DNA of 64,000 nt, from the NCBI GenBank assembly GCA_963774015.1, contig CAVZDH010000011.1:96573-160572 (forward strand), in the 5' to 3' direction. Positions 12,047-62,778 of this stretch are shown here, piece by piece. Under the pieces are notes generated by a model. That model saw only the letters and a program-made list of their open reading frames with translations, ran no database searches and was not told where the DNA came from. Each line of letters opens with the position of its first letter. Position 1 is the first letter of the stretch. The stretch is from an uncultured delta proteobacterium (GTDB taxonomy: Bacteria > Desulfobacterota > Binatia > UTPRO1). A program made the position numbers and the translations under genes.

Positions 12047-12109
12047 TCCGGGCCGATCCGTGGCCGCGCTCGACTACCTCGCCCTGCCCATGACCAAGGT
12101 CCGCGAGCG

Positions 12110-17760: not shown

Positions 17761-17874
17761 CGCGGCCCTCGGCGATCGTGCGTGCTCATGGTGCCAGGCG
17801 CGTACGTCAATCGAGGCCGCGGGCGCAAGCCGCAGCGCATGGCCTCCGGCGGCGCACGGCCTGCGGTAGCATCG

Positions 17875-22798: not shown

Positions 22799-24274
22799 TC
22801 AGTGCCACTGCGAGGGGGGCGGCGGCCCGCCGCTCTCCTCGCGACGGGCCGCTGCCTGCTGCATCTCGGCAACGGCGCGCTCGAAGCCGCGCGCGATCTC
22901 CTCGGGCGCGGCCACGGCTCGCGGACAGGTGATCAGCCCCACGTCCACCGAGCCGGCGTAGCTGATGATGCTGATGTTGATGCCGGCACCCTCGAGCACC
23001 GGCCCGACGGGATACGCGGCGACGAGCCGCGTATCGTCCAAGTAGAGTGGAAAGGGCGGGCCCGGCACGCTCGAGATGACGACGCTGTGCGGTGGCGGCA
23101 GTCGCTCGGCGAGCTCCCAGCGCGAGTACAGAGCCGCGGCCCGCGCGAACAACGCCGGCGGCGCGAGCTCGGCCCAGTCGGCGAGCATGGCGGTGCCGAA
23201 CGAGCCGTGTACGCGCTTGGCACCGGTCGACTGCGCGTGGACGAACGCGAGGACGTCCGCGACGCTCGTGAGCTGCACCGGCAGCCCGACGAACATCACC
23301 GAGACCCGGTTGTTGAGCCCCTCGGGGCCTTCCGTGCCGTGCTCGGAGACCGGAACGCTCGCGACCAGCGGCTCATGCGGGTCGTCGCCGTGCGCGCGGA
23401 GGTAGTCCCCCAACGCCCGCGTACATGCCGCCAGCAGGACGTCGTTGACGGTGACGGAGAAGGCCGCCTTCACCTCTTTCACGGCGGCGAGCGGGACGCT
23501 CCCGAACGCGACGAGACGTTCGGGCGTGAGGGCCCGATTCAGCATCGTCCGCGGCGAGGAGAACGGCAGAACCGGCGAGATCTCCGCCGCGGCGTTCGAA
23601 AGTGACGTCCGCACGACCGGCGCCACGGCGCGCGCGGTACGCAGCAACGTCCGCGCGACTTTGGCGGGGGTCGCGAGCGCCGACCAGATCGCCGATACCG
23701 CCAACGTCACGGCGGAAGGTCCGGGGTCGGGTGCGGCCCCATCGGCAGCGCCGGCCGGCCGCGCCCGCGGCGCGTCGGCGAACAGGCGCCCCAACACCTC
23801 GACGCCGGACATGCCGTCCAGAATGGCGTGATGGACTTTGAGCACGATACCGACCCGGCCGCCTTCGATGCCGGCGATCGCCCAGAGCTCCCAGAGCGGC
23901 CGCGTCCGATCGACGGGCTCTTCGGCGATCCGCGCTACGGTGGCGGCGAGCTCCGTGAGGGAACCCGGTGGCGGCAAGGTCAGGAGATGCAGGTGCTCGC
24001 GAAGGTCCACCGATGCGACGTCCACCCATGCCGGATGCGCGATCGCAAGCGGCTCCTCGACGAGTCGCCTGCGGAACGCCTCCTGCTCGACGAGGCGTTG
24101 CCACACCCTCTCGGCGATCGCCGCGGCGACCATCTCGGGATCCGGTGGCTCGCCGTTCGGCAGCGACCACGCGCGCGGCTCGAAGAGCATCGTCGCCGTC
24201 ACGTGCATGTGCTGGCTCGGCGTCTCCATGTAGAGAAACGCCGCATCGAAGCCACGTAATCGTTCGACGGTCAT
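22799..24274 (-). CDS. wax ester synthase / diacylglycerol acyltransferase (WS/DGAT)
   Basis: Active-site HHAILDGMSG and FLYMETPSQHMHV N-terminus. ATG at 24274 within track ORF 22799..25027. Confidence 0.92.
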   Translation of the reverse strand: MTVERLRGFDAAFLYMETPSQHMHVTATMLFEPRAWSLPNGEPPDPEMVAAAIAERVWQRLVEQEAFRRRLVEEPLAIAHPAWVDVASVDLREHLHLLTLPPPGSLTELAATVARIAEEPVDRTRPLWELWAIAGIEGGRVGIVLKVHHAILDGMSGVEVLGRLFADAPRARPAGAADGAAPDPGPSAVTLAVSAIWSALATPAKVARTLLRTARAVAPVVRTSLSNAAAEISPVLPFSSPRTMLNRALTPERLVAFGSVPLAAVKEVKAAFSVTVNDVLLAACTRALGDYLRAHGDDPHEPLVASVPVSEHGTEGPEGLNNRVSVMFVGLPVQLTSVADVLAFVHAQSTGAKRVHGSFGTAMLADWAELAPPALFARAAALYSRWELAERLPPPHSVVISSVPGPPFPLYLDDTRLVAAYPVGPVLEGAGINISIISYAGSVDVGLITCPRAVAAPEEIARGFERAVAEMQQAAARREESGGPPPPSQWH

Positions 24275-24330
24275 GCCCGCCTCCGGCCGAACGTCGGCGC
24301 ATGCCCGACGCCTCTTACGAGGAAACCAGG

Positions 24331-25323
24331 CTATATGCTCGCCGCTTCGTGCTCCCACTTCAAGATGTCGAGCTCGTGAAATCGCTCGCGGAGCCACGGC
24401 GTCAGGAGACCGAGCCGCTTGCAGTTCGGCACCACCTTCGAGAACAGCATCTTCTGGAACTCGCGCATGATCTCGGACTGCATGACGATCTCGTGGGTCT
24501 CCTCGATCGGGAGGCCCATCTCCTGCCACACCTCGACCGCATAGAGACGGTCGCGCATGAGCCGGCACCCTTCGTAGGTGAACTCCTCGCGCTCCCGCAT
24601 GTCGCGCTCGTTGAAGTCCTTGTAGACGCCCTCGAGCGAGAGCACCCCGAATGCGACGTGGCGCGACTCGTCGCGCATGATGTACTGCGTGAGCTGCTTC
24701 AGGAGCGGCTCGTTCGAGAACTTCTCCATGAGGCCGAAGGCCGCCATGGCGAGGCCCTCCACCAGGATCTGCATGCCGAGATACTTCATGTCCCAGCGCG
24801 AGTCGGTGAGGATCTGATCGAGCAGGGTCTTCAGATGCGGATTGATCGGATATTCCTTCTTGATCTTGTCGCGGAGGTAGTGGTCGTAGGTCTCGACGTG
24901 GCGCGCCTCGTCCATGACCTGCGTGGCCGCGTAATATTTCGCGTCGATCCACGGCACCGCGTCGACGATCTGCGCGGTCGCGAGGAGGGCGCCCTGCTCG
25001 CCGTGCAGGAACTGCGAGAGGCTCCACGAGAGCTGCTCCTGGCGGAACTTGCGGATCTCACGCTCCGTGAACTTGCCCCAGAGATGGGTTCCGAAGAGCG
25101 GGTTGTTCATGTCGGGGACGTTCTCGGCCTCGGGGTCGACGTCGATCGACCAATCGAGCGCGGTCGCCTGATCCCACTGGTTCTGCTTGGCCTTCTCGTA
25201 GAGGTTGCGGAGGCCGACTTTGAAGGTGTCGTAACTCCACGTGTAACAGGTATCGAAGGTGGTCGAGAGGTGCTCGGTGAAGTCCTCGACGGCAGAGAGG
25301 TGAGCGACGGCGGGCTCGGTCAT
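24331..25323 (-). CDS. ferritin-like di-iron carboxylate protein (R2/AurF/desaturase-like oxygenase fold)
   Basis: Two E...DExRH sets (DEARHVE, DESRHVAFG). ATG at 25323 overlaps the TetR TGA as ATGA. Confidence 0.8.
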   Translation of the reverse strand: MTEPAVAHLSAVEDFTEHLSTTFDTCYTWSYDTFKVGLRNLYEKAKQNQWDQATALDWSIDVDPEAENVPDMNNPLFGTHLWGKFTEREIRKFRQEQLSWSLSQFLHGEQGALLATAQIVDAVPWIDAKYYAATQVMDEARHVETYDHYLRDKIKKEYPINPHLKTLLDQILTDSRWDMKYLGMQILVEGLAMAAFGLMEKFSNEPLLKQLTQYIMRDESRHVAFGVLSLEGVYKDFNERDMREREEFTYEGCRLMRDRLYAVEVWQEMGLPIEETHEIVMQSEIMREFQKMLFSKVVPNCKRLGLLTPWLRERFHELDILKWEHEAASI

Positions 25324-25952
25324 TGGTGTTCTTCTCCTTGCACCGTCGTGCCCTGCGTGAGCATGCGGTGAGTCATGGAATTGATCTCTTCGATGGAGAC
25401 GTCCTGGTGGTCGATCCACCACGACGTGACTTGCGTGAGCATGCCGACGATGGCCTGGGCGGCGAACGCCGGCGGGAAGTCACGGAACACGCCGGCGGCG
25501 ACGCCCGCGGCGAAGTCGGTCTCGATGTCCGCGATGAAGATCTGATGGACCTCGCGCAGGAGCTCGTCGAATTGCGCGCTGTGGCCGAAGAGGATCTTGA
25601 AGACGTCGCGATTCTCGGCGGCGAAGCGGAAGAACGTCTCGCCGCCGACCCGGGCCCGCTCGAGGACGTCGGTGTGACCGGCCTTGGCGGCGTCCATCGC
25701 CTGCTTCGCGGCAAAGGCGGTCTCGCGCACGAGGTCGGCGAAGAGCGCGTCTTTGGTCGGGAAATAGAGATAGAAGGTACCCGTACCGACGTCGGCAGTC
25801 GCGGCAATGTCCGCGATCTTGGTGGCGTGGAAGCCCTTGGTCGCGAGCAATCGCTTGGCGGCGGCGAGAAGCTGACCGCGCGTCTTCGCCCGCCGGCGGT
25901 CCTGCCGGGTCAGGTCGTCGAGCTTGGTAACGGTCGCTGTACTAGTAGACAT
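25320..25952 (-). CDS. TetR family transcriptional regulator
   Basis: HTH LLATKGFHATKIADIAATADVGTGTFYLYFPTKDALF. ATG at 25952. Confidence 0.9.
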   Translation of the reverse strand: MSTSTATVTKLDDLTRQDRRRAKTRGQLLAAAKRLLATKGFHATKIADIAATADVGTGTFYLYFPTKDALFADLVRETAFAAKQAMDAAKAGHTDVLERARVGGETFFRFAAENRDVFKILFGHSAQFDELLREVHQIFIADIETDFAAGVAAGVFRDFPPAFAAQAIVGMLTQVTSWWIDHQDVSIEEINSMTHRMLTQGTTVQGEEHQ

Positions 25953-27733: not shown

Positions 27734-28402
27734 TCACGCGACGCAGACCGAGTACTCGAGACCGTGGCCGAGCGGCACCGTCGTCGACTCGAAACCGTTC
27801 GCCGGCTCCCGCACGAACGCGACGTAGGACGCGAGCTCCTTCGGGAAGGTGAAGATGTTGTCCGCGAACACCACGGCGCCCTTGCGGAGCTTCGGGCGCA
27901 GGAGCCGGAGCATCGGCAGGTAGAGATCCTTCCAACCGTCGAGGAGCACGAGGTCGATCGGCGCCGGCAGGTCGGCGAAGGTCTCCATGGCATCGCCGTC
28001 GCGGATCTCGGCCACCGTCGCGAGCCCCGCGTCGGCGAGGTTCCGCCGCGCGGCCGCGAGCTTGTTCGGCTCGCGCTCGCTACCGACGAAGTGGCCGCCG
28101 TTCGCGCGCGCCGCGGCCGCCAAGTAGAGAGCGGAGATCCCGAACGAGGTGCCGAACTCGACGATCGTCCGCGCGTCGATCAGTCGCGCGGTGAGATAGA
28201 GGAGCTCGCCCTGCTCGGGACTGATCGGGATGTACGCGTCCTTCAGGTAGGGCACGACGCCGTCGAGCATCGACCCGCCCGTCAGCAGCGACCAGAGGCC
28301 GGCCGGCGCCGCCCGCACGAAGACCCAGCGGTCGCCCTTGGCGGCGGCGTACAGGCGAGCCAACGTCGCCGTCACTCGGGGATCTCTGAGCGCGTCGTGC
28401 AT
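27734..28402 (-). CDS. class I SAM-dependent O-methyltransferase (family 3-like)
   Basis: EFGTSFGISALYLAAA SAM motif and LLDGWKDLY; 222 aa. Confidence 0.75.
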   Translation of the reverse strand: MHDALRDPRVTATLARLYAAAKGDRWVFVRAAPAGLWSLLTGGSMLDGVVPYLKDAYIPISPEQGELLYLTARLIDARTIVEFGTSFGISALYLAAAARANGGHFVGSEREPNKLAAARRNLADAGLATVAEIRDGDAMETFADLPAPIDLVLLDGWKDLYLPMLRLLRPKLRKGAVVFADNIFTFPKELASYVAFVREPANGFESTTVPLGHGLEYSVCVA

Positions 28403-28475: not shown

Positions 28476-30080
28476 TCAGCTCGCGCGGGCCACGCGTCGC
28501 GGCCCCTCGGCGAGCACGCACGGCACCTCGACCCGGAAGCGCGAGCCCGCACCCGGGACGCTCGACACCGAGACGCGCCCGCCGAGCGCCTCCGCCAACT
28601 GTTTGACGATGCTGAGCCCGAGCCCGACGCCGGCGTGCTGGCGCAGGTGCGAGCCGCCCACCTGCCGGAAGGGCTCGAAGATGTCGACGATCTCGTCCGC
28701 GGCGATGCCACGGCCCGTATCGCTCACCTCGATCACGACCGAGTCCGGTTGCTCGCCCCGCCGCGCCGTCACGGCAACCGCACCTGCATCCGTGAACTTG
28801 ATGGCGTTGTCCACGAGGTTCCGAACGATCTCCTGAAGCTTCACGCGATCGGTCTCGAGATCGGGAAGCTCCGGTGCGGCGTCGACCGTGAGCGCAACGC
28901 CCGCGCGGAGGTGCGAGTCCGCGAGCACTCGGATCTCCTCGAGCAGCGGACCGAGCCGGAAGCGCTCGACGTGAAACGAGATGCGTCCCGAGCTGAGACG
29001 CGAGAAGTCGAGGATGTTCGTGATGAGCCCGAGCTGCAGCTTCGAGTAGCGCGCGATCGCGTCCAACAGCTCCACCTGCGACCCGGTGAGCGGACCTGCC
29101 GCGCCGTCGGCGAGCATTTCCACGTAGCCGAGAATGACGTTGAGAGGCGTTCGCAGCTCGTGGGAGACGGTCGCCATGAACTCCGACTTCAATCGACTGG
29201 CCTCCTCGAGGCGCCGATTGAGGGCCTCGAGGTGCTGCGTGCGCGCCACGACCTTTTCTTCCAGCGAATGGCTGTACGCCTCGAGCGCCGCGCGGCCTCG
29301 CGCCACGCTGTCGGCCATCGCGTTGAACGAGAGCGCGACGGCGCCGATCTCGTCCTGCGTCGACGTCGTCACTCGTACTCCCATGTTGCCCGAGGCGAGA
29401 TCGTCGGCGGCGGCGGCGAGCGCCTGCAACGGCCGCGTCACCGCCTTCGCGATCAGGATCGCGAGACCGATCGCGATCATGGTCACGAGCGCGGTCAGCA
29501 TGGTCGCCGCCACGAGCGTCTGACGACGCAGCTCGGTCAGCGGCTCGAGCGACATGCCGACCGCGACGGTCCCGATGCGCCGGCCGCCTTGGTCGTCGCC
29601 GCTCGGCGCGACGTCGCCGTCGAGGAGCTGAATCTCCTCGCGCTGCGGCCGCGTATCGGCCATGCGTACGGCGGTTTGGAACTCCCAGAGCCCCTGGTTC
29701 GGAATCGGGTCGGGATGCTCCTCGACGACGGCGGGGACGGTCGCGGGCATCCGCCCGGCCGCGACCAACGATACGCCGTTCTCGTCGAGAACTCGGCAGT
29801 ACACGACGTCGACGCGATTCAACAGCCGGCGCGCGAGCTCCTGCAATCCGGCGCGGTCGCGGCTCGAGAGCGCGAGCTCCGCGTCGCGGGCGAGCGTCTC
29901 GGTCAGCATCCTCCCCTGCGCCGCGAGGAAGCGACCGACCTGCTGGAGGTCGCGATGCACGAGCATCGCGCTCTGTGCAACGCACGTCACGACGATGAGA
30001 AGCGACGTGGTCACGGCGACTCGCGTCGCGAAGCTCGCGCGCCCCACCACACGGCGCCAACGGTCGACGATCGGCGTCAT
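28476..30080 (-). CDS. sensor histidine kinase: TM - periplasmic domain - TM - HAMP - HisKA - HATPase_c
   Basis: ATG at 30080 (MTPIVDRW). HAMP AVTRPLQALAAAADDLASGN, H-box VSHELRTPLNVILGYVEML, DTGRGIA and GVGLGLSIV. Confidence 0.92.
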   Translation of the reverse strand: MTPIVDRWRRVVGRASFATRVAVTTSLLIVVTCVAQSAMLVHRDLQQVGRFLAAQGRMLTETLARDAELALSSRDRAGLQELARRLLNRVDVVYCRVLDENGVSLVAAGRMPATVPAVVEEHPDPIPNQGLWEFQTAVRMADTRPQREEIQLLDGDVAPSGDDQGGRRIGTVAVGMSLEPLTELRRQTLVAATMLTALVTMIAIGLAILIAKAVTRPLQALAAAADDLASGNMGVRVTTSTQDEIGAVALSFNAMADSVARGRAALEAYSHSLEEKVVARTQHLEALNRRLEEASRLKSEFMATVSHELRTPLNVILGYVEMLADGAAGPLTGSQVELLDAIARYSKLQLGLITNILDFSRLSSGRISFHVERFRLGPLLEEIRVLADSHLRAGVALTVDAAPELPDLETDRVKLQEIVRNLVDNAIKFTDAGAVAVTARRGEQPDSVVIEVSDTGRGIAADEIVDIFEPFRQVGGSHLRQHAGVGLGLSIVKQLAEALGGRVSVSSVPGAGSRFRVEVPCVLAEGPRRVARAS

Positions 30081-31039
30081 GGCAAGGTCAGGGCAGCATC
30101 GCGGGCGACGTCGGCCGGGATCGTGATGCCGAGGAGCTCGGCGGTCCGCTGGTTGACCGCGAGGTCGGACCGGCGCGGCCCGGTGACGGGGATGGTCTCG
30201 GCCCGCTCGCCGCGCAGCACCCGCTGCACGAGCTCGCCGGTCTGCGCTCCGACGTCGCGATAGTCGCAATAGCGCGCCGCGAGCGCGCCGCTTCGCACGT
30301 GCGCGGTCGAGAGCCCGATCAGTGGTACACGGCGACGGAGCGCCGCGAGGATGAGCGTCGGCGTGGTCTGCGGCGTGAACACGTGGCCGTCGGCGACCGC
30401 CCAGACCGCGTCGACCCCCTCCATCAACGTGGCGAACGCCGCAACCGCGTCACCGGCGTCGTCCACCTCGCGCGCGACCAACGTCAGCCCATGCGACGCG
30501 GCGGCGCCGACGGCCGCCGACACGATCGCGCCGGTCTCGGCGGGATTGAAGAGGACGCCGACCTTCTTGGCGTTCGGCAGCAGCCGATGCAGCGACGCGA
30601 ACTGCTCGTCGAGCGGCAGATCCAACGAAACGCCGGTCACCGCGTGCTTGGGCGTGCTCTGAAAGCCGCTCGCCTTCGGATACAGCACCATCGAGAACAC
30701 GATCGGGGTCGGCGACTCGCCGGCGAGCGCCGCCGACGTCGCGAGCGAGCCGACGGTCACGATCACCCGCGGCGCCGCCGCGTAGAGGGTTTGCAGCACG
30801 GCCGCTGCGTTCGCGGCGTCGCCTTCGAGGTCGAAGGTGAGAATCTCGGGTTGCGGCACCGCTCCCCGAAGCGACGCGATCAGCGCCTCCGTGGCGAGCT
30901 CGAAGGGCGCGAGCGTGCTGCTCTTCAGGATCGCGACCGTCGGCGCGCTCGTGACGGCGGGAACGGCGCGCGCCGGGCAGAGCAAGGCGGCGACGAGCAC
31001 CCCGATCGCGAGCCACGTCCGGCGGCGCTCAGAACGCAT
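30077..31039 (-). CDS. periplasmic ABC-type substrate-binding-like protein (PF04392-like)
   Basis: Signal peptide. VAILKSS..., TGVSLDLPLDEQ and NQRTAELLGITIP match the ABC_sub_bind pattern from memory. The stop shares ATGA with the kinase start. Confidence 0.75.
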   Translation of the reverse strand: MRSERRRTWLAIGVLVAALLCPARAVPAVTSAPTVAILKSSTLAPFELATEALIASLRGAVPQPEILTFDLEGDAANAAAVLQTLYAAAPRVIVTVGSLATSAALAGESPTPIVFSMVLYPKASGFQSTPKHAVTGVSLDLPLDEQFASLHRLLPNAKKVGVLFNPAETGAIVSAAVGAAASHGLTLVAREVDDAGDAVAAFATLMEGVDAVWAVADGHVFTPQTTPTLILAALRRRVPLIGLSTAHVRSGALAARYCDYRDVGAQTGELVQRVLRGERAETIPVTGPRRSDLAVNQRTAELLGITIPADVARDAALTLP

Positions 31040-33038
31040 AGCGCACCTGGACTCGGAAGGTGAAGCCGTTCTGGGGAATCCGATCCATGACGTGCTCGGC
31101 GCCGGCGGGATCGGGATAGGTGCGATCGAGGATGTTGTAGAGACCGAGCGAGCCGCCGAGACCTGGGATCGGCGAGGTGTACTCGAAATCGAGGTTCAGA
31201 ATCGGAGCCGTCTCGAGTCGCCGTCCGTCGCGCGTGTCGCGGGGACCAACGACCTCGAGCTCGGCGCCCCCTTCGAGCCCCCACAACAACGGGAACAGCA
31301 GCGTCAGATCGCCGAGATGCTGCGGTGAGTTGCTGAGCCGTCCGTCCTTGGTCTCGGCGCGTTGCAGGCAATAGCTGCTCTTGAGGGCGGCGCCGCGCGG
31401 CAACGGCACCCGCAGCTCGAGCTCGCCGCCGCGGGCTCGGATCGCCGGGCCGTTGACGAACTCCGTGGCCTGATCGGGTCCGCTGCCCGCGACGGGCGCG
31501 GACTCGATCTGGTCGTTCATGTCGTAGTGGTAGAGGGCGAAGGTGGCTTGCGCACCGCCCCAGAGCCGCTGCTCGAGCACGCCCTCGTACGTCGTGATCC
31601 GCTCCGGACCGAGGTTCGGGTTGACGACGGTCGCGGTGCCCGACCCCGGGTACGCGTAGTATTGCTCGTAGAGGTTCGGCGGCCGAAACGCGCGGCCGTA
31701 GAGCATCTTCACCGTCGTCGCCGGGCTGAGCGTCCAGATCACCGCGGCGCGCGGCGTCACCTGTTGGTCGCGATCGTAGTAGCGATCGAAGCGGACGCCG
31801 GCGACGAGCGTCACGTAGTCGGTGGCGCGGAGCTCGTCCTGGGCGTAGAGGCCCCACGAGCCGAACTCGCGGCGATCCTCGAGGTAGGTGACGTGGCCCG
31901 GACGATCGAAGTTCTCTTGGTGCGCACCGGGGTGGTACGCGTACTCCGCACCGACCGTCACCGCGTTCCGCTCCCACGCCTCCCAGCGCAGCTGTCCTTC
32001 GCCGCCGAACCAATCGCTCCAGGCACGATCCTCGTTCTTGATGCGCGCGCCGTCGTCACCGGCGTAGATGTACGTGCCGTGGTAGCGATAGCCGTCGTAA
32101 TAGGCGCGCGCCGACGCCTTCAGCGCGGGCGTGATCGCGGTCTCGTACGAGAGGTCGGCGAAGCGACGACCGTCGCTCGTCTGCGTACCGTCGTCGTTGA
32201 AGACGGTTCCGAACGCCCCCGTCGGAATGTGCTTGTCGCGTTGATTGATGCCGCCTTCGAGCTTGAGGCCGCGCCAGCGTGCCTTGAGGAAGAAGTCGAG
32301 CGCACGCTCGCCGTCGGCGTGCTCGGCGACGCCGTTATTGGTGCTCGGGTCGTCGAACGCCGGGTAGAAGAGCTCGTCCTGGCCGTCGAGGTCGACGACG
32401 GAGCCGCTGGCGAACAGCGACAGACCGTCCTCGGTGACGTGCCCGAAGCTCAGCTGCGCGCGCTTCCGCCAGAAGCTGCCGGTCTCGAGGAGCGCCTGCA
32501 CGCCGGGCTTGCTCGCACCGTCGAACGTGACGACGTTCACCACGGCGAAGATCGCGTTCCCGCCGTACAGCGCGGAGCCGGGCCCGCGGATCACCTCGAT
32601 CCGCTCGATCGCCTCCATGTCGATCCCGAAGTCGAAGCCGATCGCTGCAGTCTGGTAGATGTCGTCGTTGTACGTGTGGCCGTCGACGAGCAGCAAAATG
32701 CGATCGTTGTAATCTGAAGGCTGCGAAAAGCCGCGGACGCCGAGGTAGTCGTAGTTGCGGTCGCCGGTCACGTAGAAGCCGCGGACGCCCCGGAGCGCCT
32801 CGCCGAGCGTCCGGTACCCGAGCCGACGGATCTCTTCGCTCGTGATGACGGTGACGGCCGACGGAGCTTCGCGCTGCGGCTGCGGATGCTTGGTCGCGGC
32901 GCTGACGTCCTGCTCTTCGAAGAGCAGGAGCTCGCGCTGCGCCGGCTCCGCCGCGGCAGCCGATGCGCACGGCAAGAGGCCGAACACGTGACACAGCAAC
33001 ACGGCAGCGCCGAGTCGGCGAGCGATCCGCATGCGCAT
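31029..33038 (-). CDS. TonB-dependent outer-membrane receptor
   Basis: Signal peptide, plug (VTVITSEEIRRLGYRTLGEALRGVRGFYV), long beta-barrel and terminal FRVQVRYAF. The start could be 33056 (TTG), 33038 or 33032 (ATG). Confidence 0.92.
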   Translation of the reverse strand: MRMRIARRLGAAVLLCHVFGLLPCASAAAAEPAQRELLLFEEQDVSAATKHPQPQREAPSAVTVITSEEIRRLGYRTLGEALRGVRGFYVTGDRNYDYLGVRGFSQPSDYNDRILLLVDGHTYNDDIYQTAAIGFDFGIDMEAIERIEVIRGPGSALYGGNAIFAVVNVVTFDGASKPGVQALLETGSFWRKRAQLSFGHVTEDGLSLFASGSVVDLDGQDELFYPAFDDPSTNNGVAEHADGERALDFFLKARWRGLKLEGGINQRDKHIPTGAFGTVFNDDGTQTSDGRRFADLSYETAITPALKASARAYYDGYRYHGTYIYAGDDGARIKNEDRAWSDWFGGEGQLRWEAWERNAVTVGAEYAYHPGAHQENFDRPGHVTYLEDRREFGSWGLYAQDELRATDYVTLVAGVRFDRYYDRDQQVTPRAAVIWTLSPATTVKMLYGRAFRPPNLYEQYYAYPGSGTATVVNPNLGPERITTYEGVLEQRLWGGAQATFALYHYDMNDQIESAPVAGSGPDQATEFVNGPAIRARGGELELRVPLPRGAALKSSYCLQRAETKDGRLSNSPQHLGDLTLLFPLLWGLEGGAELEVVGPRDTRDGRRLETAPILNLDFEYTSPIPGLGGSLGLYNILDRTYPDPAGAEHVMDRIPQNGFTFRVQVRYAF

Positions 33039-33175
33039 CGCAGCTGTGCCGAGCAAGCGCCATGCCGTATGGCTCGGAGCCCGCGTCCTGCAAGCGCGTG
33101 AAAAGCGGGCGGTCGATGCCGGCGACGGCGACCGAAAACCCCTCGGGCGCTAGGAAAATGACGGACGCATCGACG

Positions 33176-34339
33176 TTACGGTCGCGGGCTCACGCTCGTC
33201 ACCGGACCCGTGAGCGTTCCGAGGAACGCCGCAAGATCGGCGAGCTGATCGTCGTGAAGGTCGCCGTGCGCCAGCTCTTTCATGCCGTGCGACTGGTCGC
33301 GGTAGAACCGCAACACGTCCGCGAGCGTCGCGAACTGTCCGGCGTTCATGTACGGCGCACGCACGGCGACGTTGCGGAGCGTCGGTGTCTTGAAGGCACG
33401 GAGCGTGTCGCGCGTGTCGGTGTCCATGAAGCGGAGCGCGGTGCATTGGTCGGGCGTGGCGTCGCTGAACGCGCCGAGACAGTTGAGCTCGTCGGCACGG
33501 ACGAGCGCGATGGCGGCGCTCCGACCGGCATCGGGCATCGCTTGCGGCACGCGCGTGAAGTGGAACTCGCCGTTCGTGAAGAGGGGACCAGCGTGGCAGT
33601 TGGTGCAGTGGGCGGCCCCGATGAACAGCCGGAGGCCGCGCAGCTCCGCGGGCATGAGCGCGGCCGTCGCATCGGGAGGCGTCTCGCCGAGCACGCCGGC
33701 GGCCCAGCGATCGAAGCGCGCCGGGCCCGGCACGATCGTCCGCACGAACGCCGCGATCGCCTTCGCGACGTTGACCAACACCCGCGTCGTCGCGGCCTCG
33801 CTCCGCGGCTCGCCCGGAAGCGGACCGAAGATCGCCGCGTAGTCGTCACGGTAGTGGCGCCCGACGAGCCGCGCCACGTCGGCACGCGCGAGACCGAGCT
33901 CGAGCGGGCTCTCGATCGGCGCGGCCGCTTGCGCCCACAGCGAATCCTTCCGTCCGTCCCAGAAGAACCAGGTGTTGTAGGCGACCCCGAGAAGCGGCAT
34001 CGACCGCCGCGGTAAGGGCCCGAGGCCTTCGGCGCGTGCCTTTCCGTCCTGGAAGCTCGACGCGGCGGGATGGCACGTCGCGCAGGCGAGCGCGCCGTTT
34101 CGACTGAAGCGGGTATCGAAGAAAATTCGCGCGCCCAGCGCGGCGGCGCGCGGATCGGTGTCGTAGGCGTTCGAGGGATCGTCCGGGAGCGGGCCGAGGC
34201 TGCCGATCCAGAGCGAACGCAACACGCGGAGCTCCACGGGTGACCAGGCCGGAGCGGCGTCGGCACCGGCGAGCGTCGGCGCGAGCACGAGCAGCACGGC
34301 CGCGAGCCAGGCGGCCGAACGACGGAGCGTGCGCCTCAC
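33176..34339 (-). CDS. di-haem cytochrome c peroxidase family protein (CCP/MauG/MbnH-like)
   Basis: Two haem c motifs, CATCH and CTNCH. GTG at 34339 yields signal peptide VRRTLRRSAAWLAAVLLVLAPTLAGA and overlaps the upstream TGA as GTGA. Confidence 0.88.
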   Translation of the reverse strand: MRRTLRRSAAWLAAVLLVLAPTLAGADAAPAWSPVELRVLRSLWIGSLGPLPDDPSNAYDTDPRAAALGARIFFDTRFSRNGALACATCHPAASSFQDGKARAEGLGPLPRRSMPLLGVAYNTWFFWDGRKDSLWAQAAAPIESPLELGLARADVARLVGRHYRDDYAAIFGPLPGEPRSEAATTRVLVNVAKAIAAFVRTIVPGPARFDRWAAGVLGETPPDATAALMPAELRGLRLFIGAAHCTNCHAGPLFTNGEFHFTRVPQAMPDAGRSAAIALVRADELNCLGAFSDATPDQCTALRFMDTDTRDTLRAFKTPTLRNVAVRAPYMNAGQFATLADVLRFYRDQSHGMKELAHGDLHDDQLADLAAFLGTLTGPVTSVSPRP

Positions 34340-34782
34340 GGGAGATCGAGCGCGAAGCTCACGGAATCGATGCCGGGCTTTGCGCTGATGCGAAAGGCGA
34401 CGATCCATGCTCCCGGCATGTGGAACTTGAGACCTTCCACGAGGTACCGCCCATCGCCGAGTGCACGCACGGTGGGCGTGGTCGGGAGACCGTGCGCATG
34501 GGCCGGCATGCCGCCGAGCACGGTGAGCCGCGCATCATCGACCGGTCGTCCGTCGGCATCGACGACCGTCACCGTCCAGCTGTGCACGGCGAGCATCGGC
34601 ACCGGCTCGAGCGACGACGCGTAGGTCACCCGATAGAGCTTCTTTTCGCTCCAGGCGCTGGTCGCGCCGGGAATGGGCGTCGCGCGCACCGGGGTCGGCG
34701 ACGACACCGGTCCGCCGCGGGCGTCGCCGACGAGGAGCACGAGCCCGAGGAGCATCACGATCCCGCGTGCAGCGATCGCCAC
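34336..34782 (-). CDS. small secreted YtkA/FixH-like (Ig-fold) protein with His/Met motifs
   Basis: Signal-anchor N-terminus. GGMPAHAHGLPT and KFHMPGAW motifs; 148 aa. The family call is tentative. Confidence 0.6.
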   Translation of the reverse strand: MAIAARGIVMLLGLVLLVGDARGGPVSSPTPVRATPIPGATSAWSEKKLYRVTYASSLEPVPMLAVHSWTVTVVDADGRPVDDARLTVLGGMPAHAHGLPTTPTVRALGDGRYLVEGLKFHMPGAWIVAFRISAKPGIDSVSFALDLP

Positions 34783-34902: not shown

Positions 34903-35871
34903 TTACCAACGCTCGACGGGCTCCGCGCGCCCGCTCGCGATCGAGCGGTAGCATGCTTCGGCGATCGCCACCGACTTGGCACCGTCGGCGAGCGTGATGC
35001 ACGGCGGCCGTCGGTCGATCATCGCCGCGGCGAACTCCGCGAGCGTCGCGGCGACCGTCATCACGGGCGCGCCGACGGCGAGCGGGGTTCGCGCGGTGCC
35101 GACGAGACGGGCCGCGATGCCGTGCACGTGGTCGCCGACGAGCTGACCGTCCCGACCCACGAGCTCGATCGCGCCGCACCGTCCGGCCGTCGCACGTGAG
35201 CCCGCGACCTGCGCGAGGATACCGCCGTCGAGCTCGATGATCGCGGCGAAATTGTCCTCGGTATCCGCGGTCGTCACTTGGCCGGCCGCCGCGCGCACCC
35301 GGAAGGCCTCGCGTCTCGTCAGGAAGCGCAGGGCATCGAAGCTGTGGACGCCGGTGTGGAGCACGATACCGCCGCCCGCCTCGACGCGCCGGTCGAGCCA
35401 CGGCAGCGTCGAGGGCTCGAAGCGTTGGCTCAGCACCGCCGCGTGGATCGGCCCGATCGCCGGCAGCGCGTCGCGGAGCGCGCCCACGACGGCGTTGAAG
35501 CGCAGGGTGTGCGCGACCATCGCGGTGACGCCCGCGCTCGCGACCGCCTCGGCGATGGCGCGACAGTCCGGGACCGTCGGCGCGAGCGGCTTCTCGATCA
35601 GCAGCGCCTTCTTCGCCCGCGCGACCGCCGTGGCGAGCCGGACGATTCGGGGTCGGCGGGACCACCAGCACGACGGCCTCGACGGCCGGGTCGGCGATCA
35701 GCGCCTCGGCGTCGTCGTGGAAGCGGCACCGAAGGCGCGGGCCTGCTCGGCACCGGCGGCACGGTCGCGACGCGCGAGCGCCACGAGGCGGAGGCTCGGA
35801 ACGTCCGCGACGTGGGCGAGATAGCGCGCGCCGTGCTTGCCGGTTCCGATGATCCCGAGTCCGATCGCCAC
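34903..35871 (-). pseudogene. Gfo/Idh/MocA family oxidoreductase disrupted by a -1/+1 frameshift pair (as assembled)
   Basis: GTG at 35871 with a GGGAGGG SD, and Rossmann IGLGIIGTGKHG. The segment FHDDAEALIADPAVEAVVLVVPP reads only in a different frame (about 35655-35720). Upstream and downstream parts (ALLIEKPLAPT..., MVAHTLRFN...) share one frame, which has a TGA at 35698-35700. Confidence 0.7.
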
Positions 35872-36336: not shown

Positions 36337-36956
36337 TCATTCGCGGGGGCTGGGTAGCCCCGTCCTGAACGCGTAGCGGGTGAGCTCGACACGGTCTCGC
36401 ACGTCGAGCTTCTGAAAGATGTTGTTGATGTGGGTCTTCACGGTCGCCTCGCTGATCTGACAGCGCTCGGCGATCTCGGCGTTGCGCATACCGAGGGCGA
36501 CGCAGCGGACGACCTCGCTCTCGCGCGCGGTGAGCTTCACCGCCGGAGCGCTGCGGAGCTGCGCCGCGAGCTCCGTCTGGAGCGTCGCGGGCATCCATAC
36601 GAGACCCTCCTGGACGGAGCGAATCGCCTCCATCAGCGTCTCCACGGCGAAGCGCTTCTGGACGATCGCGCGCGCGCCGAGTCGGATGGCGGCGAGACCG
36701 TCCTCGATCCTCTCGCTCGCGGTGAGCACGATGACGCGCGTCACGCCGGCGAGGTTCTCGATGTCGTTCACCATCCAGCGCTCCATCTGGAGATCGAGGA
36801 GCAGGAGATCGCACGGCGTGACGGCGAGCGTGCTCAGGAGGTCGTCGCGCGCTCGACCTCGGCCACGACCTCGAAGTCGGGCTGCTGACGCAGGAGGGAG
36901 CGCAGCCCTTGACGGAAGAGCGCGTGGTCATCCGCGAGGACGATGCGAGTCGCCAT
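36337..36956 (-). pseudogene. NarL/LuxR-type response regulator with a 1-nt frame break (as assembled)
   Basis: REC start [22 protein letters not shown] (ATG 36956) stops at 36834. The remainder ([25 protein letters not shown] ... LuxR HTH LTARESEVVRCVALGMRNAEIAERCQISEATVKTHINNIF) is in another frame. The junction lies in a CGCGCG run at 36846-36852. Confidence 0.8.
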
Positions 36957-38139
36957 GTCCCTCACTCGCCGCCAACGGCAGCTCGATCTCGAGATGCGCA
37001 CCGGGCTCACCGGCGGCGGCGATCGCCAGATGGCCGCCGCACTCCGCGACCCGCGACGCGATCGACCACGGCGGCGTCGCCTCGCGCTCGAAACCGACGC
37101 CGTCGTCTCGGATGGTGATGCGAACGGTGTTCACGTCCTCGGCGACGTCGAGCATCGCCGCGGCCGCACGCGCGTGTCGGCGCGTGTTGCGCAGCCCCTC
37201 GAGCACGATTTGCAAGACCTGCTCGAGCACCGAGCTCTTCGCGGTGACGACCGCACGGAGGTGACACGTCGGATCGGCGCTCCGGCTCGCGTCGTGCGCC
37301 GGAGCCTCGGCCACCTCGGCGAGCGAGCGGATGTATGCCCGCACGTCGTCGAACTCGCGCGCCACGCCGGACTGGAGCTCGACGACTTCCTGCAACGCCT
37401 CGGCGGCGCGGTCGCTGCGCAACAGCTGGCGACACGTCTCGAGCCGGAGATTGATGCCGGCGAGCCCCTGCGCGTAGCCGTCGTGGAGGAAGCGCGCGAT
37501 GCTCTGGCGCTCGGCGACGGTCTCGAGCTCGCGGATGCGCTCCTCGAACAGCACGCGCTGGTGGCCGAGGAACCCGACCAGATAGCCCGTGATGGCGAGA
37601 CACGCCGGACGCATCACGTAGAGGTGCCAATCCCCCGGCGTCAGGAGCGCGATCAGCACGAGGTAGATCGCCGTACACGTCGCGGTGCTGATCGCGGTCG
37701 CCGCGAAGTTCCGGCGACACCCCACCGCAACGATCACGAACGCGAAGAACACGAACGAGGGCGTAGTCGGTCCTTCGGTAAAGAGCGTGATGACGACCGC
37801 GAACAGAACGTCGAGCACCGTCGAGAGGGCCGGGAGACGGTCGAGACCGAGATCGCGGCGGCAGGCGAGATAGATGCCGATCGCATACGCGAGATGCACG
37901 CACAGGATCTGAAACAGTCGCGGGTCGATCGCGAACGGCCCCGACGAGACGTGAATCCACGCGGCGAGATGCGGAATGGTGGGATCGACGAAGACCGAGG
38001 CGAGCGTGACGACCGAAAGCACGATCCGGCCACGCGCGATGTTCGACTCGAGATCGATGACCGCGTGGGATCTCACGGCATCCGCGACTAGACGATCGTC
38101 GGCACGCGCGCAACCGACGTTGCACGCGTGCCGACGCAC
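36928..38139 (-). CDS. histidine kinase, HisKA_3 type, with polytopic membrane sensor region
   Basis: Five to six TM helices without a large loop. H-box [14 protein letters not shown] and HATPase_c (IRDDGVGF). GTG at 38139 is 19 nt after the Amt stop. Confidence 0.85.
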
Positions 38140-38158: not shown

Positions 38159-39511
38159 TCAAGCGGTGTAGGCCGTCTCGCTGTGCTGCGACAAGTCGAG
38201 GCCGAGGCTCTCGTCGTCCGCCATCGGACGAAGCGGCGTGATCGCGTTCACGATCACGAGAATGACGAGGTTGCCGACGCCGCAGAAGACGTAGGTCGCG
38301 GCGACCGCCAGCACCTGCTTCAGCACCATCTCCGGGTGGCCGTAGAGCAGACCGCCGTCGAGGCCGAGGCTGAGCGTCGGCACCGCCGCGTTGACCGCCT
38401 TCGTCGCGAACACCCCGGTCAAGATCGCGCCGAGGGTCCCGCCGACCATGTGGACGCCGACCACGTCGAGCGCGTCGTCGTAGCCGAAGCGCGCCTTCAG
38501 GCTGACGGCGAAGGAGCAGACCACGCCGCCTGCGATCCCGAACACGATCGACGCCATCGGCGTCACGAAGCCCGCGGCCGGGGTGATGCAGACGAGCCCC
38601 GCGACGGCACCGGACGCGGCCCCGAGAATCGTCGCTTTCCCGGATCGCAGCCACTCCGTGCCCATCCAGCCGAGCGCGGCCGCCGCAGCGGCCGTGTTCG
38701 TGTTGATGAACGCGATCGCCGCGAGCTCGCCCGAGGACAGGGCGCTCCCGGCGTTGAAACCGAACCAGCCGACCCAGAGAAGCGCCGCGCCCATGACCGT
38801 GAGCACCAGATTGTGCGGGGGCATCGGCTGATGCGGATAGCCCATACGCCTGCCGAGATAGAGCGCCGTCACGAGCGCCGAGATGCCGCTCGAGACGTGG
38901 ACGACGGTCCCGCCGGCAAAGTCGAGGGCACCGATCTGCGTGCCGATCCAGCCGCCGCCCCAGACCCAGTGCGCGATCGGGCTGTAGATGAAGGTCGACC
39001 AGAGCAGCATGTAGAGCGCGAAGGCCGGAAAGCTCATGCGCTCCGCGAAGGTGCCCGAGATGAGGGCCGGAGTGATGATGGCGAAGGTCGCCTGGTAGAT
39101 GACGAAGAGGACGTGGGGGATCGTCGGGGCGAGCGGCTGCGTCGTGCCGAGCACGCCGCTCAGGCCGACGTAATCGAGACCGCCGATAACACCGCCTCGG
39201 GTCGGGCCGAAGGCGAGCGAGTAGCCGTAGACCACCCACGTGACGCTCACCAGGGCCGCGCAAAAGAAGCTGTGCATTATGGTCGACAGGACGTTCTTCG
39301 AGCGCACGAGTCCGCCGTAGAAGAGAAAGAGCCCCGGGATCGTCATCATCAGGACGAGCGCCGTGCTGGTGAGCATCCAGGCGGTATCGCCCGTGTCCAA
39401 TTTCGGCTCGGCGCCGGCCGCCGCCAGGGCGACGCCCGCGCCGGACGACGTCAGCATCGCGAGCGCCGCGCAGGCGACGCGCCCTACCAGCTTCTGCGTC
39501 CCGCGATTCAT
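38159..39511 (-). CDS. amtB: ammonium transporter (Amt family), copy 1, intact
   Basis: DFAGGTVVHVSSG, WFGFNAGS and DDALDVVGVHMVGG. ATG at 39511 with a GAGGAG SD. Confidence 0.93.
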   Translation of the reverse strand: MNRGTQKLVGRVACAALAMLTSSGAGVALAAAGAEPKLDTGDTAWMLTSTALVLMMTIPGLFLFYGGLVRSKNVLSTIMHSFFCAALVSVTWVVYGYSLAFGPTRGGVIGGLDYVGLSGVLGTTQPLAPTIPHVLFVIYQATFAIITPALISGTFAERMSFPAFALYMLLWSTFIYSPIAHWVWGGGWIGTQIGALDFAGGTVVHVSSGISALVTALYLGRRMGYPHQPMPPHNLVLTVMGAALLWVGWFGFNAGSALSSGELAAIAFINTNTAAAAAALGWMGTEWLRSGKATILGAASGAVAGLVCITPAAGFVTPMASIVFGIAGGVVCSFAVSLKARFGYDDALDVVGVHMVGGTLGAILTGVFATKAVNAAVPTLSLGLDGGLLYGHPEMVLKQVLAVAATYVFCGVGNLVILVIVNAITPLRPMADDESLGLDLSQHSETAYTA

Positions 39512-39590
39512 CGAACGATTCTCCTCGGGCGTCGATCTCCACGCCCGTCGTAGTGTGCTGCGATTTGCGGAAGTCACTCGGGATATAGAC

Positions 39591-39623
39591 GCGGGCTCGT
39601 CGCGATCGGAGCGACGAGCCCGC
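39591..39623 (-). other. 13-bp perfect GC-rich stem-loop between PII copy 1 and Amt copy 1
   Basis: GCGGGCTCGTCGC-GATCGGA-GCGACGAGCCCGC, with no U-tract on the transcribed strand. Confidence 0.7.
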
Positions 39624-39645
39624 TGTTTCCGGATGGTGGGATGTT

Positions 39646-41382
<1,737 letters not shown>

Positions 41383-41433
41383 GAGGTCACCTCCGCTTTC
41401 GTTCCAATGAGTGATCTGGACGCGACAGCGCAG

Positions 41434-41450
41434 AGCAACCACCATGCCGG
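41434..41450 (-). promoter_or_regulatory. sigma-54 promoter CCGGCAT-GGTGG-TTGCT upstream of Amt copy 2
   Basis: GG-N10-GC spacing matches TGGCAC-N5-TTGC. About 50 nt upstream of ATG 41382 and near-identical to the 43747 element. Confidence 0.7.
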
Positions 41451-41540
41451 TAGCGAGCGGGGAATCGGGCCCATCCTTGGGTGGATAGGGTCTCCGCCTG
41501 AGATGGAGGCCGCGGCGGAGTGCCGCTCGCCGTCGGAACG

Positions 41541-41579
41541 AAAAAGGGCCGCCCCCGATCTCGCGATCGAAGGCGGCCC
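41541..41579 (-). terminator. Rho-independent terminator after Amt copy 3
   Basis: GGGCCGCC...GGCGGCCC stem with inner CGATC/GATCG pairing, followed on the minus strand by TTTTT (plus-strand AAAAA 41541-41545). About 25 nt after the stop at 41603. Confidence 0.7.
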
Positions 41580-41602
41580 CGTCCGGTGAAGGAGGTAGCG
41601 GC

Positions 41603-43309
41603 TTAGTGCCGTTCGGCGTGGAGCTGGAAGTCGGGGTAGCCCATCGTTCCCATCTCGGGACCGTCGAGACCCTCGATCTCGACCTCCTCGGGGACGCGGA
41701 TCGGCGTGATCATGTCGCTCACCTTGAACCACACGTACGCCATCACGAATGCGAAGGCCGCCAGCACCACGCAGTCGATCGCCTGCATGATGAACTGCGA
41801 GAAGTCACCGTAGAGCAGGCCGCGCACGCCGTCGGACCCGTAGGCCTGCACCATCGAGTCGCGCACCACGCCGTTCCAGCCCGCCCCGTACTCACCGGTC
41901 GCGAAGATGCCGAGCGAGAGCACACCCCACAAGCCATTGATCCCGTGGACCGAGATCGCGCCCACAGGGATCGTCGACGCCCATGTTCTCGAAGAAGAAC
42001 ACGCTGTAGACGACCAGCACGCCGGCGATGAGGCCGATGATCGCGGCCCCGACCGGGTTCGACGAAGGCGCACGGCGCGGTGATCGCGACCAGTCCCGCG
42101 AGCATGCCGTTGCACATCATCGTGGGATCCGGCTTGAGGCCCTTCATCTTGAGCGCCAAGGCGGAGCCGAGCGCGCCGGTGATGCTCGCGAGCATGGTGT
42201 TCACGACCACGAAGCTGATGCGGAGGTCGGTGCCGGAGAGCGTCGAGCCGGGATTGAACCCGAACCAGCCGAAGGCGAGGATGAACGTCCCGAGCACCAC
42301 CATCGGGACGTTGTGGCCCGGCATGGCCTGCGGCTTGCCCTTGGAATCGAACTTGCCGATGCGTGGGCCGATCACCATCGCCCCCGCGAGCCCGATGATG
42401 CCGCCCATCCCGTGCACGACGCCGGAGCCGGCGAAGTCGACCGCGCCGTGCCCCAGGCCCCAGTTGAGCCCGCCCTGCGCGAGCCAGCCCCCGCCCCACA
42501 CCCAGTTGGCGTAGATGCAGTAGGGCAGCGCGACCCAGAGACCGTAGAGGCAGAAGTTCTTCCACGCCCAGCGCTCGGCCATGGCGCCGGTCGGGATCGT
42601 CGCGGTCGTGTCCATGAACACCATCATGAAGAAGAAGAGCGCCATGACGCCGGTGTCGTTGACCGAGCTGCCGAGGAAGAAGCCCTTCATGCCCATGAGG
42701 CCGTAGGTGAACGCGCCGGTCGCATTGCCGGCGGAGTCGACGGCTGCGCCGAGCCCGATCCCGCTATTGAGCACGGAGAGGCCGGGCCCGAGCGAGGGAT
42801 ACCAGCCCGGCGCCACCGGTCCGTTCCACCAATTGCCCCACCCGATCGCGAACCCGTAGACCCAGAAGGCGAGACAGCCCAGCGGGTAGATCATGAAGTT
42901 CATGGCGGACGTGTGCGCCGAGTTCTTCGCGCGGCAGAGACCGGTCTCGACGAACATGAACCCGGCTTGCATGAACATGACGAGGAAGCCGGTGACGAGC
43001 GTCCACACGTAGTTGATCGAGTAGCAGATTGTGGGCGATGCGGTCGTAGAGATCGGTGATGGCGAGCTTGGTCGGGACGTCGCCCTGGGCATCACCCGCG
43101 GGCGCCGCCCACACGCCGGAAGCTCCACCGGTCGGATCCGGCCACGACGGTTTCGCCGGGTCGTTGGTGGCCGTGAAATAGGCCGGTAGCGTCGGTGCAT
43201 CGTCGGCGTGCGCGCTCTCGATCATGCCCATGATCGCACCCGACAACACCGCCACGCCGAGCATCCCTAGCCCCCATCGCCAGATCTTTTTCTTCGTGCT
43301 CTCGATCAT
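41603..43309 (-). pseudogene. amtB: ammonium transporter, copy 3 (signal peptide plus about 60-aa N-terminal extension), with three +1 insertions (as assembled)
   Basis: ATG at 43309 with a GGGAG SD. The protein is recovered by joining frames at about 43030 (AHNL / SINYVWTLVTGFLVMFMQAGF), about 42053 (APCAFVEP / VGAAIIGLIAGVLVVYSVFFFENMGVDDP) and about 41966 ( / VGAISVHGINGLWG). The tail is [17 protein letters not shown]. Confidence 0.85.
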
Positions 43310-62401: not shown

Positions 62402-62778
62402 CGTGAGCCTCCTTTGCGGGTACGCGTCTTCGGACGGCCGACCTTGGACAGGGTGGTTGCGCCCGTCGGAGCTCGGCAGCGAGCTGGCGACCGCGACAGC
62501 ACGTCGGGGTCGACCCACGGCTCGACGTCGCCCGCGCGTTGTCCGTCACGCGCGTTGCCGATCGCGGCGACGACCGCGGCGAACGTGTGCTCCAGCTCGC
62601 CGAGGAGCAGCGCCTGCTTGCCGCCGAAGAGATCGTAGAGCGTCGGGACCGAGACGCGGCTCGCGCGCGCGAGGTCGCGCATGGTGATGCCGTCGTAGCC
62701 CCGCTCGGCGATGAGCTCGCGCGCGGCCGCGAGAATCCGCGCGCGTCGCTCGGCCTTGTGCTCTTCGAAGAGGTTCAT
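62389..62778 (-). CDS. TetR family HTH protein, truncated (lacks most of the ligand-binding domain)
   Basis: Good TetR HTH AERGYDGITMRDLARASRVSVPTLYDLFGGKQALL. Only 129 aa; the tail loses coding character and runs into the Rieske RBS and start. Confidence 0.65.
   Translation of the reverse strand: MNLFEEHKAERRARILAAARELIAERGYDGITMRDLARASRVSVPTLYDLFGGKQALLLGELEHTFAAVVAAIGNARDGQRAGDVEPWVDPDVLSRSPARCRAPTGATTLSKVGRPKTRTRKGGSRCAP

Follow-up and report, generated by a model that had tools for sequence, protein, structure and literature searches.

On the minus strand of a 64-kb stretch of contig CAVZDH010000011.1 from an uncultured Binatia bacterium (hereafter the window; G+C content about 70%), three closely packed genes encode a TonB-dependent receptor, a periplasmic binding protein of the PF04392 (ABC_sub_bind) family and a HAMP-containing histidine kinase, in this order from 5' to 3' (Table 1). 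Comparison with related loci suggests that the three genes probably make up one envelope-spanning sensing module, in which the signal runs from the receptor to the binding protein and on to the kinase. The dense arrangement described in the initial annotation was borne out by the open reading frame (ORF) coordinates and by direct reading of the DNA: the stop codon of the receptor gene (31029-31031) falls within the binding-protein gene (ATG at 31039), and the stop codon of the latter has the four nucleotides ATGA in common with the ATG of the kinase gene. This second overlap is consistent with translational coupling of binding protein and kinase.

Profile hidden Markov models (HMMs) matched all expected domains in the expected genes. 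The receptor showed matches above the cut-offs to Plug (PF07715; 1.2e-23, 84 bits) and TonB_dep_Rec_b-barrel (PF00593; 3.8e-39, 136 bits), and its architecture comprises a signal peptide, a plug, a 22-strand-type barrel and a C-terminal phenylalanine (the protein ends in RYAF), the last as in outer-membrane barrels. The binding protein matched PF04392 (1.3e-36) with 126.8 bits at a cut-off of 25.9; its signal peptide, like that of the receptor, was predicted by hydropathy. Matches in the kinase were to HAMP (1.4e-14), HisKA (1.7e-18) and HATPase_c (1.6e-30), together with a sub-threshold match to sCache_4 in the N-terminal part (20.7 bits, cut-off 22.1). The kinase ends after HATPase_c at residue 534, carrying neither a receiver nor an Hpt domain, and its orthologues in two related loci (L007 and L008; loci are designated by L numbers) are likewise 534 residues long. 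Hydropathy places its transmembrane segments at about residues 15-41 and 187-218, which confirms the periplasmic domain previously proposed to lie between two transmembrane helices but gives it a size of about 145 residues, not about 160.

No ATP-binding cassette (ABC) permease or ATPase gene was matched in the window or in 29 related loci by jackhmmer searches seeded with the partners from two canonical PF04392 operons, and Pfam scans of the main predicted genes of the window likewise revealed none; at about 13.3-15.0, 20.1-22.8 and 49.2-51.1 kb the window was covered by the six-frame jackhmmer search alone. The absence of transporter genes noted at the outset thus holds for the window as visible.

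Table 1 Features of the receptor, binding-protein and kinase genes and of their surroundings in the window.
Feature	Position	Strand	Remarks
TonB-dependent receptor	31029-33038	-	669 residues if started at ATG (33038); TTG (33056), in frame, is an alternative
Motif RELLLFEE, receptor residues 35-42	32913-32936	-	between signal peptide and plug, at the expected TonB-box position
Receptor/binding-protein gene overlap	31029-31039	-	11 nucleotides; from ORF coordinates and sequence
PF04392 (ABC_sub_bind) periplasmic binding protein	30077-31039	-	320 residues; predicted signal peptide about residues 1-25 (...PARA/VP)
ATGA common to binding-protein stop and kinase ATG	30077-30080	-	4 nucleotides, read directly in the sequence
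Sensor histidine kinase	28476-30080	-	534 residues: first transmembrane segment, periplasmic domain, second transmembrane segment, HAMP, HisKA, HATPase_c
Kinase periplasmic sensor domain, GacS/BarA PDC-like	29523-29957	-	about residues 42-186, about 145 residues
Intergenic region 5' of the receptor gene	33039-33175	-	137 nucleotides; candidate promoter region of the trio
O-methyltransferase	27734-28402	-	same-strand neighbour downstream of the trio
Di-haem cytochrome c peroxidase	33176-34408	-	same-strand neighbour upstream of the trio
NarL-type response regulator	36337-36956	-	no other receiver domain in the window; 3.3 kb from the receptor start, on its upstream side

Conservation of the gene trio

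Candidatus Binatia and comparable metagenome bins contained the closest relatives of the binding protein. Motifs of the binding protein alone were used to scan one genome per GTDB species, which gave 23 loci, and the surrounding ORFs were scored against the window proteins. A receptor homologue lay immediately upstream of the binding-protein gene in 19 of these 23 loci and a kinase homologue immediately downstream in 17, with both present in 15, invariably in the same order and on the same strand; in several of the loci without a full trio, the locus is cut by a contig end. Carriers of the trio include Binatia, a Thermodesulfobacteriota bin, Candidatus Abyssobacteria and Gammaproteobacteria, and further trios or pairs were found at L003, L045-L047, L049 and L050. 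The composition varies among three contigs that carry the closest relatives of the binding protein: L001 encodes receptor, binding protein and kinase, L003 the same set with a receiver fused to the kinase, and L005 a binding protein and kinase with no receptor.

The gene junctions are conserved as well. In 15 of 22 loci the kinase gene overlaps the end of the binding-protein gene by 4 nucleotides, and the 11-nucleotide overlap between receptor and binding-protein genes recurs in the Binatia clade (L007, L008, L009, L010, L013, L015, L017). Order, strand and overlaps recur among loci whose binding proteins share as little as about 20% identity. The element present throughout is the binding protein, which occurs with the kinase alone (L005/L016, L014) or with the receptor alone (L023, L028, L051). 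The recurrence of the same order in related genomes from several phyla places the arrangement far beyond chance, and the three genes, as judged from this comparison of loci, form a conserved unit. The module is therefore not confined to one marine bacterium, and in several phyla it comes with a binding-protein clade of its own (see below).

Two bins each harbor two copies of the module on different contigs (L021 and L025 in CAZSKP01; L019 and L028 in CAYVDS01), which suggests paralogous expansion for different ligands. The L025 copy is located among further hybrid kinases and single-domain receivers. At the kinase-less loci L023 (7984-10239, minus strand) and L028 (7946-10270, minus strand), the next gene is convergent and encodes a YfhO-like membrane protein of 751-774 residues.

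A distinct clade of PF04392 proteins

The AlphaFold model of the window binding protein (predicted local distance difference test score 90.8) adopts an ordinary two-lobed type I PF04392 fold, with 3LKV, 3LFT and 6HNJ as the best fold matches. The protein is not a member of the TrpX equivalog family NF041285 (117.3 bits, cut-off 390). Canonical PF04392 genes, as found in plasmids of Pseudomonas, Salinivibrio and Variovorax, are part of binding protein-permease-ATPase operons. In a neighbour-joining tree, 24 receptor- or kinase-linked binding proteins formed one clade apart from eight other PF04392 proteins (three ABC-linked proteins, three orphans and the crystallised 3LKV and 3LFT) in 200 of 200 bootstraps, and in the loci examined the members of this clade were never encoded next to ABC genes. 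The window protein shares 34-37% identity with linked proteins of other phyla and 25-29% with canonical ones. Thus, within the limited sample compared, it is not closer to a family with dedicated ABC partners, an outcome that would have argued against the sensing role, and it sits in the linked clade. A search for clade-specific residues returned only a few (G97, A100, D140, F221). In the lineages concerned, many proteins annotated as 'ABC transporter substrate-binding protein' are probably sensor subunits.

A GacS/BarA-type kinase

A profile built from the N-terminal 230 residues of 12 trio kinases matched PDB entry 5O7J (E 2.5e-8), the only convincing match to a solved structure, which is the periplasmic detector domain of Pseudomonas aeruginosa GacS (PMC5595915). 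By this profile match, the sensor domain of the trio kinases is homologous to the GacS detector domain. Moreover, the window kinase is collinear with residues 29-529 of Escherichia coli BarA (second transmembrane segment, HAMP, HisKA and HATPase; 30% identity, E 2e-50), and the GacS-type detector domain, HAMP, HisKA and HATPase_c of BarA/GacS/LetS kinases are all present in it; it scored 223.8 bits with the BarA equivalog model, for which the cut-off is 890.

Additional output domains are found in relatives. The kinases of some Binatia relatives (L003, L012, L014, L018) contain a receiver, and those of Gammaproteobacteria (L027, L045-L047, L049, L050) are 902-920 residues long with sCache_4, HAMP, HisKA, HATPase and receiver domains, an Hpt domain being recorded in four of the six (L027, L045, L047, L050) and not in L046 or L049. 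The kinases of L045-L047 aligned over their full length with the NCBIfam BarA model, at scores (505-560 bits) that stay below the equivalog cut-off. Their trios are flanked by a cysM-like gene and rlmD in one direction and by acpS-pdxJ-recO-era-rnc-lepB in the other; E. coli K-12 has rlmD as the divergent neighbour of barA. The model match and the position beside rlmD together indicate that the kinase encoded in a marine gammaproteobacterial trio is most likely the BarA/GacS orthologue of its host. At L019 (7934-9478, plus strand), the protein encoded after the binding protein shares the sensor domain and HAMP and continues with a GAF domain until the contig end, suggesting that the module may feed outputs other than the classical kinase core.

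A receptor lacking a FecA-type extension

Comparison of the window receptor with NCBIfam yielded TonB-hemin (137.6 bits), PRK13483 (130.1 bits), TonB-siderophore (121.4 bits) and NF053590 (116.5 bits), all far below the respective cut-offs. NF053590, the TOL_0244 family (cut-off 645), ranked fourth and was the sole match to run uninterrupted through most of the receptor (residues 44-564); it was the top NCBIfam match for the receptors of L027, L020 and L025 (188-307 bits, again far below the cut-off). On these scores, the window receptor is a distant relative of the TOL_0244 family and not a member of it.

No N-terminal STN signaling extension of the FecA type was present in the receptor, whose signal peptide and plug lie only about 25 residues apart. 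Furthermore, no anti-sigma factor or extracytoplasmic function (ECF) sigma factor gene is located beside it, the neighbours encoding the cytochrome c peroxidase and the methyltransferase. This agrees with the earlier proposal of a sensing route distinct from FecA/FecR/ECF sigma. The motif RELLLFEE between signal peptide and plug was conserved in an alignment of 18 trio-linked receptors, related motifs such as RELFLFEE, REELLFQE and DFFGE occurring in the other clades.

The Pah system of Cycloclasticus

The initial annotation knew of no experimental characterisation of such a triad, a belief that is not borne out, as precisely this arrangement and model appeared in 2023 for PahS, PahP, PahK and PahR (PMC10570129). 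In Cycloclasticus sp. P1, growth on polycyclic aromatic hydrocarbons requires the consecutive genes pahS, pahP and pahK (Wang et al., iScience 2023, PMC10570129). PahS is a TonB-dependent receptor of 687 residues, PahP a periplasmic substrate-binding protein of 318 residues and PahK a histidine kinase of 771 residues (PMC10570129; gene table in PMC8547461). Hydrocarbon binding by PahS and PahP was reported, as were direct PahS-PahP and PahP-PahK binding, switching that depends on the ligand, and a PahK-PahR interaction; in the proposed model, PahS hands the ligand to PahP, whereupon PahP detaches from PahS and activates PahK (PMC10570129). The regulator PahR is encoded elsewhere and annotated as GacA (PMC8547461).

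The Pah system and the trio resemble each other in the gene order of receptor, binding protein and kinase, in the unlinked regulator and in the proposed signal flow, and the GacA annotation of PahR fits the BarA/GacS-like nature of the trio kinases. They differ in the kinase, as PahK has 771 residues and is said to have no periplasmic sensor domain (PMC10570129), whereas the 534-residue window kinase has a clear GacS-type sensor domain and no receiver. The ligands of the Pah system are polycyclic aromatic hydrocarbons, and the host of the window trio is an uncultured Binatia-like bacterium with 70% G+C. No named Cycloclasticus protein was found among the homologues of a gammaproteobacterial binding protein, with the profile of its clade, or by an exhaustive search of representatives with cluster look-up. 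Locus L051 was considered as a Pah locus, since its receptor (687 residues) and binding protein (318 residues) have the published sizes, and was rejected because no kinase follows.

Literature searches under PF04392 family names, or for GacS together with TonB-dependent receptors, returned no description of this module, and a 2021 review of binding proteins in signaling mentions neither TonB nor PF04392. Within the searchable literature, the reliance of the module on a distinct PF04392 clade and a GacS-type sensor domain, its spread over several phyla and its association with the BarA/GacS orthologue itself in some marine Gammaproteobacteria appear to be new. The trio is real, and its interpretation as a sensing module has strong comparative support; it belongs to a barely studied kind without being unprecedented.

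A proposed sensing module and its alternatives

Gene structure, domain content, conserved order and overlaps, a separate binding-protein clade, the absence of ABC genes and homology to GacS are direct observations. A conserved unit, a PF04392 clade not associated with ABC genes, and a receptor with neither a FecA-type extension nor an ECF sigma factor are read most economically as a chain from ligand to receptor, binding protein and kinase. In such a chain, the TonB-dependent receptor would bind a specific ligand, likely one that is scarce or poorly soluble, and would probably pass it across the outer membrane. The PF04392 protein would have lost any transporter role and become a dedicated co-sensor; it would capture the ligand in the periplasm, and its loaded (or emptied) form may dock on the PDC-like sensor domain of the kinase, which is of the GacS/BarA type. 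Docking would switch autophosphorylation of the kinase through HAMP, and the phosphate would be transferred to a response regulator encoded elsewhere or, in relatives, pass through the fused receiver, with or without Hpt. The putative ligand route from receptor through binding protein to kinase, as first suggested, fits the conservation, the clade and the GacS homology.

Several points weigh against this interpretation. Ligand transfer, contact between binding protein and kinase, the direction of the switch and the identities of ligand and regulator are all elements that we infer. No cognate response regulator for the trio kinase was identified in the window; as first noted, none is adjacent to the kinase gene, and the only receiver domain is that of the NarL-type regulator, which adjoins its own HisKA_3 kinase (36928-38139, minus strand). 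The binding-protein tree, calculated by neighbour joining only, holds only eight canonical sequences, and RELLLFEE departs from the canonical TonB box, so that its putative role as such is deduced from position. Further reservations concern the Pah precedent. The resemblance of the window proteins to PahS, PahP and PahK is one of layout, sizes and annotation, and the denial of a periplasmic sensor domain to PahK (PMC10570129) is at odds with the trio kinases analyzed here; one might speculate that a mis-called pahK start codon is one reason for the missing domain. Moreover, the pahS primers printed in PMC10570129 (Tn7-pahSf and Tn7-pahSr) match the gene of a 500-residue flavin monooxygenase. 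Exact matches to both were found in 13 marine metagenome contigs (L042, 5468-6970, minus strand, and L030-L041), where they represent the first and last codons of a gene for a flavin adenine dinucleotide (FAD)-binding monooxygenase (MKHPYLDVLIVGAGLSG ... FRKLLSA) and not of a TonB-dependent receptor.

The components could also operate by a partner switch without hand-over of a ligand. The receptor would hold or release the binding protein according to its occupancy or to the state of the envelope, and the binding protein would regulate the kinase, so that the ligand need not enter the periplasm; analogues would be the sequestration of YfiR by YfiB, which frees YfiN, or the FecA-to-FecR relay, here through a soluble adaptor. 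The binding protein is accompanied by only the receptor at some loci and by only the kinase at others, which suggests that it may contact both, and the kinases of L020 and L021 show weak matches to CHASE8, the YfiN-type sensor domain. Furthermore, PahP was bound to PahS without ligand and released on ligand addition (PMC10570129). We nevertheless regard such a switch as unlikely, since the PF04392 fold is intact in the binding protein, with two lobes and a cleft as in the amino-acid-binding structures, its top 50 fold matches include nothing resembling YfiR, and the receptor is an ordinary plug and barrel with no signaling extension.

Ordinary nutrient uptake is improbable. Here, the receptor and the binding protein would supply an ABC or other importer whose genes are elsewhere, and the kinase would merely be co-transcribed or take a secondary signal from the binding protein, in the manner of Tar with maltose-binding protein or VirA with ChvE. 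PF04392 is primarily a transporter family, and the window is part of a contig of about 611 kb that leaves room for a distant importer; however, at none of the 29 loci, which span several phyla, do ABC genes occur in the 7-8 kb or so around the gene for the binding protein, the linked binding proteins group in a clade apart from the transporter-type proteins, and the 4-nucleotide coupling joins the binding protein to a kinase gene, not to a permease gene. Finally, the packing together of three unrelated genes without functional meaning can scarcely be entertained, as it is contradicted by the recurring order, strand and overlaps in Binatia, Abyssobacteria and Gammaproteobacteria.

Genomic surroundings and ligand leads

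None of the genes flanking the trio encodes a signaling or transport partner. Beyond the peroxidase gene, upstream of the trio and on the same strand, are genes for a YtkA-like protein and a truncated GFO/IDH/MocA oxidoreductase. A consensus scan of the region upstream of the receptor gene detected no sigma-70-like site, and the promoter and terminator scan gave nothing usable. Of its Rossmann domain, the GFO/IDH/MocA ORF (34903-35697, minus strand) retains just the final third (profile positions 78-120), followed by the C-terminal domain, its N-terminus being missing or in another frame. The NarL/LuxR-type regulator gene is split by a frameshift: the reading frame from its start runs to a stop near 36834, and the remaining receiver and GerE portions are in another frame. 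In the adjoining HisKA_3 kinase, the HATPase match is partial (profile positions 5-55 of 111). The two genes are either a pseudogene pair or the product of a sequence error, and the apparently broken oxidoreductase gene within 3 kb of the frameshifted regulator raises a question over local sequence quality. Directly upstream of the pair are three tandem Amt ammonium-transporter genes (38159-39691, 39994-41709 and 41743-43221, all minus strand), beside which no P-II gene was noticed. The C-terminal part of a further histidine kinase (HisKA and HATPase_c) is encoded at positions 2-1138 of the plus strand, cut by the window edge.

The hints as to the ligand point to a hydrophobic or aromatic compound, and as none of them is conserved across loci they provide only a lead. 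The founding member of the TOL_0244 family rises sevenfold on the n-C28 alkane in Thalassolituus (PMC6304351), and the crystallised PF04392 proteins bind aromatic amino acids (PMC10443332). At L003 (11162-15845, plus strand), the trio with its hybrid kinase is followed immediately by a three-gene operon of molybdopterin, 4Fe-4S and EB_dh proteins (ethylbenzene-dehydrogenase-like), and the genes upstream encode an acyl-CoA dehydrogenase, a short-chain dehydrogenase/reductase and a GFO/IDH/MocA protein. Oxygenase and lipid genes occur in the window at 12047-13315 (plus strand) and at 16666-18138, 61220-62545 and 22799-25422 (minus strand), none of them linked to the trio. The genes scattered over the window include those for a cytochrome P450, a luciferase-like monooxygenase, the alpha subunit of a Rieske ring-hydroxylating oxygenase, a wax-ester synthase (WS/DGAT) and an AurF-like di-iron protein; these oxygenase and lipid genes fit a hydrocarbon- or lipid-oriented metabolism.

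Comparison with known systems

The window binding protein belongs to the same Pfam family and has the same fold as Streptococcus pneumoniae 3LFT, Vibrio cholerae 3LKV and Clostridioides difficile CD0873, to which its model is closest (template modelling (TM) scores 0.73-0.81). In contrast to the canonical transport members of PF04392, which are encoded in binding protein-permease-ATPase operons, it has no ABC partner nearby and falls into a separate clade.

BarA, GacS and LetS share with the window kinase a homologous PDC-like detector domain, the latter lacking their receiver and Hpt domains. Neither a receptor nor a binding-protein gene accompanies barA in E. coli, whereas the gammaproteobacterial trio kinases are preceded by both. 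BarA was reported to bind acetate directly (PMC8639471), whereas what GacS naturally binds in pseudomonads is still given as unknown (PMC7695008). The possible bearing of the trio on the GacS/BarA signal is the most interesting lead of this analysis, and a GacS-type kinase with a dedicated ligand-delivery pair would make the question of GacS input testable. In uncultured marine Gammaproteobacteria, receptor and binding protein are coupled translationally to the kinase at the barA/gacS locus, and with simpler kinases the module extends through Binatia and other phyla. It is conceivable, and we suggest this tentatively, that the receptor-binding protein pair is an input device, ancestral or alternative, of BarA/GacS kinases as a class. 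If so, GacS-type detector domains could read a ligand that is imported through the outer membrane and presented by a protein, and the trio systems would give a direct handle on what GacS-type kinases sense.

In the Bacteroides SusC/SusD loci with hybrid two-component sensors, TonB-dependent import is coupled to periplasmic sensing by a kinase, sometimes via a binding-protein-like sensor domain. There, the binding-protein-like domain is fused to the kinase and degradative enzymes are encoded; the binding protein of the trio is a separate gene product, and the protein families are unrelated. TorT/TorS, LuxP/LuxQ and ChvE/VirA are similar to the trio in that a type I periplasmic binding protein is encoded beside, or acts on, a membrane kinase as its ligand-binding subunit, and TorT appeared among the fold matches of the window binding protein (rank 37, TM score about 0.5). 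These systems differ from the trio in their binding-protein family and kinase sensor fold and have no dedicated TonB-dependent receptor gene. Kinship with YfiB/YfiR/YfiN was also considered and rejected in favor of analogy only, the binding protein being of the PF04392 family and without YfiR among its top 50 folds, the outer-membrane partner a TonB-dependent receptor and the output a kinase.

The trio also differs from FecA/FecR/FecI. The trio receptor has no signaling domain and no anti-sigma or ECF sigma gene nearby, and the signal would instead be relayed by a soluble binding protein and a two-component kinase. TonB-dependent signaling is usually equated with the FecA/anti-sigma/ECF-sigma scheme; the trio would represent a second route, from a soluble binding protein to a two-component kinase.

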